Shown: positions 20,885 through 21,477 of the stretch, one piece after another
How positions within the stretch are numbered: position 1 is the stretch's first letter
Layout: each line of letters starts with the position of its first letter
Source: a virus
Taxonomy: Duplodnaviria; Heunggongvirae; Uroviricota; Caudoviricetes
Virus record (IMG/VR): IMGVR_UViG_2609459833_000005
Coordinates: 1-21,924 of that record
DNA: 21,924 nucleotides
Strand: one strand, 5' to 3'
Program-made: the position numbers and the translations under genes
Notes under the pieces: generated by a model
Databases searched by the model: none
What the model was told of the DNA's origin: nothing
What the model saw: only the letters and a program-made list of their open reading frames with translations

Positions 20885-21316
20885 ATGCTTGGAATCTTCA
20901 AAAAGAAAACCCGCAGAGCGGCTGCGGAAATTAAAAAGTTTGAAAAACGCGATCTGGCACAGGCAGTGATTAACGCTGCATACCTGGTGGCTTATGCCGA
21001 TGGTGAATGTGAGGCTTCCGAGAAAGCGAAGATCGAACAGGTATTACGTAACCAGCCCACCTTGTCCGCGTTTACGTCAGAAATTAATGCGATTAGCGCA
21101 ACCATTATCGGTCAGCTGGATACGAACTTTAAAATTGGTCGTCGAGCGGCGTTACGTGAGATCGAGGATGTGAAACACGATACGCGTGAAGCGGAAGACG
21201 TGCTGGATGTGGCGGTGGCCATTGCCGAAGCAGACGGCGAAATAGAGCCGGAAGAGCGCAAGGTGCTGGAAGAGATTGCCGGTGTTCTGGGCCTTCGTCT
21301 GGAGAATCATCTGTGA
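20885..21316 (+). CDS. TerB-like (tellurite-resistance TerB fold) protein
   Basis: 143-aa ORF from the ATG at 20885 (SD aaaggaa); twin motifs AAYLVAYADGECEASEKAKIEQVL and VAVAIAEADGEIEPEERKVLEEIAGVLGL match the TerB ADG-x-E repeat pattern. Confidence 0.6.
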   Translation: MLGIFKKKTRRAAAEIKKFEKRDLAQAVINAAYLVAYADGECEASEKAKIEQVLRNQPTLSAFTSEINAISATIIGQLDTNFKIGRRAALREIEDVKHDTREAEDVLDVAVAIAEADGEIEPEERKVLEEIAGVLGLRLENHL

Positions 21317-21477
21317 CGGTAAAAATGCGTCTGGCTGTGGTTGCGCTCCTGCTGTTTCTGGTGGTGATGGTGGACTTCAGCAGCCGGATAATGTCAGTGC
21401 TGGCTGACGGTGTGCTGGTGGCGGGTGTGGTGGTTGTTGCTTCCCCGTTGCTGAAAAAGAAAGCATCAGGCGATTAG
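21313..21477 (+). CDS. Small hydrophobic membrane protein (about 54 aa, GTG start)
   Basis: Below the ORF-track cutoff; GTG overlaps the TerB-like stop (GTGA), SD ggagaa upstream; product VTVKMRLAVVALLLFLVVMVDFSSRIMSVLADGVLVAGVVVVASPLLKKKASGD. Confidence 0.4.
   Translation: MTVKMRLAVVALLLFLVVMVDFSSRIMSVLADGVLVAGVVVVASPLLKKKASGD

Follow-up and report, generated by a model that had tools for sequence, protein, structure and literature searches.

The closest described system to the locus considered here is the tciA-tciB-tciC cluster of phage P1 (NC_005856, annotation of Lobocka et al. 2004), in which a gene for a TerB protein is followed by an overlapping gene for a 54-aa protein of family DUF3927. 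The DNA analysed here, a stretch of 21,924 nucleotides from IMG/VR record IMGVR_UViG_2609459833_000005 (the window), covers the left half of a lambdoid prophage adjoining a polyamine-binding-protein gene. It carries a module of the P1 type, a TerB-family gene and then a DUF3927 gene with overlapping stop and start, and the pair lies directly behind a conserved RNA leader:

20757..20884, + strand: structured 5' leader of about 128 nt, recognised by cross-phage conservation, covariation and a covariance model that gives the window copy 132.5 bits
20885..21316, + strand: tciA, from ATG at 20885 to TGA at 21316, encoding a soluble TerB-family protein of 143 aa
21313..21477, + strand: tciB, from GTG at 21313 to TAG at 21477, encoding a DUF3927 protein of 54 aa

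Both modules are phage-borne and lie beside tRNAs, and their products are of matching size, with TerB proteins of about 141-143 aa that are 42% identical and DUF3927 proteins that are 44% identical. P1 differs in possessing tciC (35 aa, no Pfam family), whereas no third small open reading frame (ORF) of this kind lies between tciB and the STnc100 small RNA (sRNA) gene in the window. It also lacks the structured leader, and its tci genes belong to the C1-repressed ban operon, while the window pair belongs to a Q-dependent late operon. The tci names originate in the P1 annotation, where function was assigned 'by homology' only. GenBank phage records, including that of phage JLK-2012, name the pair tciA and tciB; RefSeq uses 'tellurite resistance TerB family protein' and 'DUF3927 family protein'; and PHROGs labels the families 'tellurite resistance' (phrog_632) and 'TciB-like inhibition of cell division or resistance to colicin' (phrog_1470). 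As a gene pair, tciA and tciB are already known, named and routinely annotated (RefSeq, PHROGs).

The TerB protein of the terZABCDE operon (Klebsiella KP-TerB, PDB 2JXU) shares with TciA its Pfam family, a near-full-length alignment, the all-helical fold class and twin DG-x5-E motifs. Unlike the ter operon, tciAB has no other ter genes nearby: a Pfam scan of the window finds phage and flanking-host functions only, and related loci are alike in this respect. With terC, terD, terE and terZ absent, tciAB is therefore not a ter-operon member, and the 54-aa TciB would take the place of the multi-pass TerC as membrane partner. To our knowledge, the tellurite, colicin and phage phenotypes of the ter operon have never been assigned to TerB alone. 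TerB-superfamily domains of E. coli are characteristically membrane-tethered, as in DjlA, in YebE/DUF533 and in TerB with TerC. The N-terminal module of DjlA and YebE (DUF533) place such a domain at the cytoplasmic face of the inner membrane, and TciA matches both models weakly; in these proteins, however, the anchor is part of the same polypeptide, accompanied in DjlA by a J domain, whereas an anchor for TciA would come in trans.

Two further comparisons concern the site and the leader. The stx2AB cargo of Stx phages has an identical left flank (tRNAs, terminator), an identical right flank (STnc100, esterase region) and the same dependence on terminator read-through, but the cargo itself is entirely different and stx2 is without the folded leader core. 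Pseudoknotted leaders that sequester the Shine-Dalgarno (SD) sequence, such as preQ1-II and SAM-II, and the RNase III-processed lambda N leader, resemble the tciA leader in combining an SD-pairing helix with a hairpin-loop pseudoknot in the 5' untranslated region (UTR). The tciA leader differs from them in matching none of the 4227 Rfam families and in the heterogeneity of the genes behind it (TerB, antirepressors and others), which argues against a metabolite of a single pathway.

TciA is a TerB-fold protein. It matches Pfam PF05099 with an E-value of 3.2e-16 and 60.1 bits (cut-off 24.4) over profile positions 2-109 of 118, PHROG 632 with an E-value of 6.5e-69, and Klebsiella TerB (2JXU) with an E-value of 4.4e-8 over residues 14-137, nearly its full length. 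An AlphaFold2 (AF2) model, based like the conserved columns on 28 homologues, is all-helical with eight helices (predicted local distance difference test score, pLDDT, 88; predicted template-modelling score, pTM, 0.82). Its best PDB neighbours in Foldseek are the TerB-like 2H5N (probability 1.0, template-modelling score 0.55-0.62) and 2OU3, a COG3793 tellurite-resistance protein, all with E-values of at least 0.012. The chain divides into a basic N-terminal helix (residues 1-22, pI 11.2) and an acidic helical body (pI 4.4). Within the body lie the twin DG-x5-E motifs, DGECEASE (39-46) and DGEIEPEE (117-124), in which E46, D117, G118 and E124 are invariant among the homologues and D39 and G40 nearly so. 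The duplicated A-D-G-x5-E acidic motif of TerB is thought to bind a metal ion. Sub-threshold matches to the DjlA model (E-value 1e-6, far below the cut-off) and to DUF533 leave TciA a member of neither family. In PADLOC-DB 2.0 there is no convincing match, the sole hit of TciA being the candidate PDC-S48 (14.7 bits, E-value 0.003, 35 residues), and TciB has none.

TciB is a predicted two-helix membrane peptide of family DUF3927. It matches PF13064 with an E-value of 1.6e-18 and 66.9 bits (cut-off 25) and PHROG 1470 with an E-value of 3e-24, and it shows two Kyte-Doolittle hydrophobic peaks between basic N and C termini, with K4, D21, F22, D33, P45 and K48 conserved. It matches no holin model in Pfam or PHROGs. 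The DUF3927 family is small: 5.8 billion proteins yield 185 clusters of it. The ORF list and the sequence place the tciA stop and the tciB start in a shared GTGA, with GGAG about 8 nt 5' of the GTG. Two public E. coli proteins, P0124 (197 aa) and P0183 (170 aa), contain TerB and DUF3927 in one ORF and look like frameshift fusions across this overlap.

The earlier note on this DNA, made from the sequence alone, had proposed a TerB-fold protein, to be compared with PF05099, and a translationally coupled hydrophobic partner of about 54 aa. Both proposals hold: the PF05099 homology is present, well above its cut-off and seconded by the 2JXU match, and the GTGA overlap together with the PF13064 and PHROG 1470 scores makes TciB a real family member rather than a chance ORF. 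The view of the pair as an unrecognised oddity does not survive, as it equals P1 tciA/tciB (PHROG 632/1470) and about 40% of complete E. coli genomes contain matching DNA.

The part of the locus that P1 does not share is the leader, which had escaped the earlier note. Comparative analysis indicates that it folds into covariation-supported helices, one of them base-paired with the SD sequence:

20759-63 with 20770-74, + strand: stem of hairpin HP1, with its loop at 20764-69
20765-69 with 20851-55, + strand: pseudoknot PK
20782-89 with 20830-37, + strand: helix Pa
20790-20805 with 20859-75, + strand: anti-SD and helix Pb, covering most of the SD (AAAGGA, 20871-76; start codon at 20885)
20810-18 with 20841-49, + strand: helix Pc
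20816-26, + strand: small hairpin P3

The sample behind this structure consists of 119 stretches from a pattern scan of viral contigs, which with the loci already fetched give 191 copies and 75 variants. The HP1 stem varies in a compensatory manner, from GCGCC/GGCGC to ACAUC/GAUGU or ACACU/GGUGU. Its loop pairs about 80 nt downstream and does so in at least five complementary versions (CGCCC/GGGCG, CGCUC/GAGCG, CGCAC/GUGCG, GGCUC/GAGCC and UCUCAC/GUGAGA); a sixth, CCGCA/UGCGG, emerges only from hand reading of rows that the model misaligned. Pa occurs in more than ten complementary versions, and Pb with its CCUUU extension pairs with GCUCACCC...AAAGG. Conservation of the leader nucleotides persists where TerB identity has fallen to 41% (Klebsiella phage) or 70% (Erwinia jumbo phage).

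Two alignments were used to measure this support. When 20 diverse members are aligned by MAFFT without regard to structure, 89.2% of cells are paired, compared with 34-49% when the 3' partners are slid, and 21 pairs have changed on both sides against 9.3 +/- 1.8 in shuffles, none of 500 shuffles reaching the observed value. The second alignment comprises 41 distinct sequences aligned by a covariance model built with HP1, Pa and the small hairpin only; the helices left out of the model still pair in its alignment, and 88-89% of cells overall are paired across the two alignments. In the 41 sequences PK is 92% paired, with one position occurring as CG in 14 cases, UA in 13 and AU in 7, and over the whole structure 28 pairs have changed on both sides, where shuffles give 15.6 +/- 2.2 (none of 500 reaching the observed number). 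Since G-U pairs are frequent, the structure is specific to the + strand.

The pairing between anti-SD and SD is nearly invariant, and the case for it therefore rests on conservation and position and not on covariation. A fold that enforces Pb, and with it the sequestered SD, is the minimum free energy structure or lies within 1.5 kcal/mol of it in five of the nine leaders computed, the window copy included. Single-sequence folding of the leader is unremarkable (z-score -1.35); the structure is revealed by comparative analysis alone. Conserved structure with compensatory changes, together with an element lying over the SD, marks the leader as a probable cis-regulatory RNA.

Two other readings of the same nucleotides were considered. 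RNAalifold offers a helix between the anti-SD strand and 20843-20862, in which 84% of cells are pairable; its 5 covarying pairs compare with 4.7 in shuffles, 308 of 500 of which reach that value, and the helix is kept only as a possible 'open' state. An HDV-like ribozyme built from Pa, Pb and Pc is most unlikely: there is no Rfam HDV match, the first Pa pair is C-G and not the usual G-U, and the upstream hairpin lies within the fold.

The leader extends well beyond this prophage and beyond tciA. Of 5426 complete E. coli genomes, 1255 carry it, at up to six copies each and in O157:H7 prophages among others, and up to three copies are found in one phage contig. Genes for antirepressors (P22_AR_N, ANT/KilAC), for proteins of 400 and 485 aa and for several unknown products follow divergent copies, which lie 3' of lysis cassettes:

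L003:8376-8515, divergent leader copy
L190:8795-8934, divergent leader copy
L142:3830-3968 and L142:1353-1488, - strand, divergent leader copies
L107:3700-3815, divergent leader copy
L201:7834-7948, divergent leader copy
L001:9403-9545, divergent leader copy

As it is found before varied cargo genes, the leader is a portable 5' module and not specific to TerB. In 91 of 113 unique contexts a terminator-like hairpin with a T-run lies directly 5' of it, and in jumbo phages a tRNA 3' end takes that place. The 5' UTR of stx2A in phage phi24B (L231:2852-2905) keeps the first ~11 nt of the leader (TATCTGCGCC...) and the SD-proximal ~12 nt (CCAAAAGGAACAC), without the folded core. Retention of the two ends only suggests that cargo cassettes have been exchanged within the leader element.

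A scan of Rfam 15 (4227 families) with cmscan at E <= 1 finds nothing on the + strand at 20757-20884, and at gathering thresholds the whole window yields STnc100, sok, DicF and tRNAs only. No RefSeq feature lies under the leader in any of the 1255 E. coli genomes that carry it. The leader thus appears to be undescribed in Rfam, annotation and literature, though it may have another name in literature beyond our search. We tentatively put forward, with somewhat less than even confidence, that it represents a new class of cis-acting RNA: a pseudoknotted, SD-occluding gate at the 5' end of interchangeable late-region cargo cassettes (the TerB pair, antirepressors and others) in lambdoid phages, and beside tRNAs in Erwinia jumbo phages, with TciA/TciB as a minimal, tractable TerB membrane module.

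The position of this cassette in the prophage can be defined at the nucleotide level. The gene order of the window runs integrase, recE-like, DicF, repressor, replication genes, hok/sok, DUF968, RusA, a DUF1133 Q-like gene, DNA methyltransferase, tRNAs and tciAB, and the features that frame the cassette are as follows:

20425..20453, + strand: promoter-like site (TTGCAG, 17 nt, TATTAT) 5' of the tRNAs, read from the sequence and missed by a consensus scan, hence weak evidence
20463..20714, + strand: three tRNA genes with anticodons CAU, UCG (Arg) and UCU (Arg), from ARAGORN, Rfam and RefSeq/phage annotation
20729..20752, + strand: intrinsic-terminator-like hairpin with a T-run, from a terminator scan, directly 5' of the cassette
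21543..21748, + strand: STnc100 sRNA, a PasD relative (Rfam RF02076, 143.2 bits against a gathering score of 47), outside the cassette

The tRNA set is that of ileZ-argN-argO in Stx phages. For the first of the three (20463-20538, + strand), ARAGORN reports Met (anticodon CAT), and RefSeq and Stx-phage records give tRNA-Ile (ileZ-like, presumably lysidine-modified). By blastn offset, the promoter-like site corresponds to the putative 'pT' tRNA promoter of phi24B (L231 2526-2554), and the terminator-like hairpin is labelled 'terminator upstream of the Stx-genes' in the phi24B record. Homology to phi24B, an Stx2 phage, covers window 20312-20763 and resumes from 21555, the gap in phi24B being filled by the stx2 genes. 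Phi296, a relative without stx, has only 23 nt between the left flank, which ends at 20751, and the right flank, which begins at 21497. From these two comparisons, window ~20752-21496 is a discrete cassette that, judged from the flanking alignments, is inserted at the nucleotide position of stx2AB. A promoter scan finds no sigma-70-like promoter within it on the + strand.

STnc100 sits in sequence common to stx-less and, partly, to Stx phages. According to a 2026 preprint (bioRxiv 10.64898/2026.05.13.724894), it is related to the PasD sRNAs of pathogenic E. coli, and TerB is among the genes conserved near PasA/PasC. PasA itself was ruled out as the tciA leader, as it lies beyond the esterase gene and ends in a terminator. 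In near-identical prophages STnc100 is followed by a nanS-p-type esterase gene, two DUF genes, a holin gene and a lysozyme gene, and in the closest related prophage the holin gene is about 3.2 kb 3' of the pair. The pair is in the late transcription unit but outside the lysis cassette. These comparisons bear out the placement in the earlier note, after the tRNA cluster and at the position where Stx phages carry stxAB, and make the expression on induction that it foresaw probable, with the pair in the late unit 3' of the Q-like gene. They give no ground for the outcome that it had named as fatal, a conserved part of the lysis cassette with known function, given the sRNA and esterase gene (and the two DUF genes) that intervene before the holin in the closest related prophage.

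The pair is widely distributed. Of 5426 complete E. coli genomes, 2189 have a DNA match to tciAB, which in 803 genomes extends over 80% or more of the pair, and a single genome can contain as many as eight matching places. Among phages, 130 records contain a TciA-like protein, and they range from virulent Erwinia jumbo phages and N4-like Schitoviridae to phages of Vibrio and Pseudomonas. The genome scan for TerB worked with an alignment of five sequences but not with one of eight distant TerB proteins, whose diversity was too great. All Enterobacterales loci examined have a DUF3927 gene directly 3' of the TerB gene, overlapping or abutting it; these loci include lambdoid prophages, P1, a Klebsiella phage, Erwinia jumbo phages, two N4-like phages and all 20 of 20 loci taken from different Enterobacterales genomes. 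The pair thus spans four unrelated phage types of Enterobacterales, virulent ones included. As the pairing is kept in unrelated phages, tciAB moves as a unit; its retention in strictly lytic phages makes it most likely that the benefit comes during the lytic cycle, and argues for a role in lytic growth.

Three observations accompany this survey. Klebsiella phage 5 LV-2017 has, without annotation, a gene for a DUF3927 protein of 51 aa (L006:3423-3578, E-value 2.2e-14); this gene overlaps the TerB stop and is followed by membrane-protein ORFs and an endolysin gene. In both N4-like phages a third ORF of 108-110 aa, with no Pfam match, overlaps the end of tciB (L089:3068-3394; L090:3099-3431) and may be an extra component of the module. 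A functional link between tRNAs and tciAB was rejected: the two are neighbours in lambdoid phages, P1, JLK-2012, this window and jumbo phages, but among 29 loci a tRNA lies within 1 kb in about 10 only, and the association is treated as a shared cargo neighbourhood.

Taken together, these features are consistent with a composite model in which a late-transcribed, translationally gated moron cassette would make a membrane-tethered TerB module that buffers or senses ion or membrane-potential disturbance. As a whole we hold the model to be a serious possibility that still falls short of probable; within it the components are identified with near certainty, and much less confidence attaches to the physiological role. 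The cassette would comprise three parts, the structured RNA leader, tciA and tciB, as a cargo ('moron') unit at the position between Q and lysis. It would be transcribed mainly after induction, by Q-modified RNA polymerase reading through the preceding terminator. The leader would hold tciA translation low until remodelled or cut, whether by RNase III processing of the long Pb/Pc duplex, by a protein or by a small ligand, and tciB would be made by translational coupling in fixed proportion to tciA.

At the membrane, TciB would insert into the inner membrane as an N-in/C-in hairpin with both ends cytoplasmic and would recruit the acidic body of TciA, predicted to bind cations, to the inner membrane face, where the basic N-terminal helix of TciA may contribute. 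The charge pattern fits this arrangement: TciA is basic at its N-terminus and acidic in its body, and TciB is basic at both ends. A contact between TciA and TciB at the membrane is proposed by analogy with TerC for TerB and with the built-in anchors of the TerB-like domains in DjlA and YebE. The module could then buffer or sense cation or membrane-potential disturbance, keeping the infected cell productive until the phage's own holin fires.

Several points weigh against this composite model and against the leader as its gate. Pa crosses both Pb and Pc, and the helices may represent either a double pseudoknot or two alternative states; the opening of the leader has several possible triggers; and read-through from the tRNA promoter may give low-level expression in the lysogen. 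P1-type and N4-type tciA genes are without the leader, by leader model or locus comparison. Pseudomonas and Vibrio phage TerB genes have no DUF3927 neighbour, and TerB can therefore act without DUF3927. When the fusion P0124 was modelled with AF2 as a proxy for the complex, the TerB domain was confident and the membrane hairpin low-confidence and undocked (pTM 0.61, pLDDT 43-62). P1 tciA, tciB and tciC all scored as non-essential for plaque formation in a genome-wide CRISPR interference (CRISPRi) screen (PMC10695390). Our literature search found no functional study of phage TerB, TciA, TciB or DUF3927, and several genome papers mention a solitary phage terB without testing it (PMC7371120, PMC8421299).

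The same evidence can be read in other ways. Low expression in the lysogen could protect the cell against superinfecting phages or pore-forming colicins, as a minimal form of the Phi and PacB phenotypes of the plasmid ter operon. Prophage TerB has been listed among putative phage-defence genes (PMC7371120), the promoter-like site 5' of the tRNAs could supply the necessary read-through transcripts, and the pair turns up very often in E. coli prophages, at as many as 8 places in one genome. Such a role in lysogenic conversion is nevertheless unlikely. Strictly virulent Erwinia jumbo phages and N4-like Schitoviridae carry the pair and have no lysogen to protect, and any upstream promoter is separated from the protein by both a terminator and an SD-occluding leader. 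PADLOC provides no convincing match (14.7 bits, E-value 0.003), and the ter operon phenotypes are known to need several other ter genes, which are absent in the window.

The size of TciB, its predicted N-in/C-in topology and its charged C-terminal tail resemble what is generally known of class II holins, which invites a reading in which TciB is a holin- or antiholin-like two-helix protein, TciA its cytoplasmic regulator, and the two together tune holin triggering. The lambdoid pair shares its late transcript with the lysis genes, and in Klebsiella phage 5 LV-2017 the pair is directly 5' of the membrane-protein ORFs and endolysin gene. We consider a role in lysis timing quite unlikely, as TciB has no holin-family match in Pfam or PHROGs, and the holin of related E. 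coli prophages is set apart from the pair by an sRNA and an esterase gene (with two DUF genes in the closest prophage). The pairs of P1 and of N4-like phages, moreover, are in early or middle regions far from the lysis genes, and these phages have their own holins. The lysis-timing or membrane-stress module suggested in the earlier note is thus speculative.

A third possibility is that TciA serves host take-over or counter-defence, either as a decoy that mimics the TerB-like domain of DjlA or YebE or as a chelator of divalent cations, and so blunts an envelope-stress, chaperone or abortive-infection response. The conserved twin acidic motifs and the location of the pair in early, host-takeover regions of N4-like and jumbo phages would fit, as would the partial similarity to the DjlA model (E-value 1e-6, far below the cut-off), but that similarity is merely the one shared by the whole TerB superfamily. 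This reading leaves the obligatory membrane partner unexplained, no target of TciA is known, and we regard it as very unlikely. That the pair is a genuine tellurite-resistance gene, as its database name says, is scarcely credible: only the family name speaks for it, terC, terD, terE and terZ are nowhere in the window by Pfam scan, a virulent phage would have no selective logic for it, and it has been argued that a solitary phage terB cannot alone confer tellurite resistance (PMC8421299). In no useful sense is tciAB a tellurite-resistance determinant.

Elsewhere in the prophage, the early region holds a hok/sok toxin-antitoxin locus at 16033-16357 (+ strand; sok RF01794, 117.6 bits, with a Hok-family ORF) and a DicF sRNA gene at 7335-7386 (- strand). 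Between the Q-like gene and the tRNAs, an N6/N4 DNA methyltransferase gene is intact at 19364-20422 (+ strand). In a near-identical prophage with tciAB this methyltransferase is a 3' remnant (L002:11429-11725), and an ATP-dependent nuclease and a cytosine methyltransferase are present on the other strand instead; the region is highly mosaic.

Identification of the two genes as tciAB takes the pair off the list of 'unknown cargo at the Stx site'. TerB has been a puzzle for 30 years, and the phage pair, as two small genes that travel together, provides a simpler setting than the seven-gene ter operon for questions about TerB at the membrane. The leader, for its part, is a widespread, strongly covarying and unannotated RNA of E. 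coli, present before antirepressor genes as well as before tciA. If the leader is the gate that we tentatively propose, it would set when the cargo proteins are translated, including antirepressors whose leaky synthesis endangers the lysogen. Gating of late-cargo translation in this manner would bear on how prophages keep dangerous accessory genes silent, and on the exchange of cassettes, stx included, at this site.

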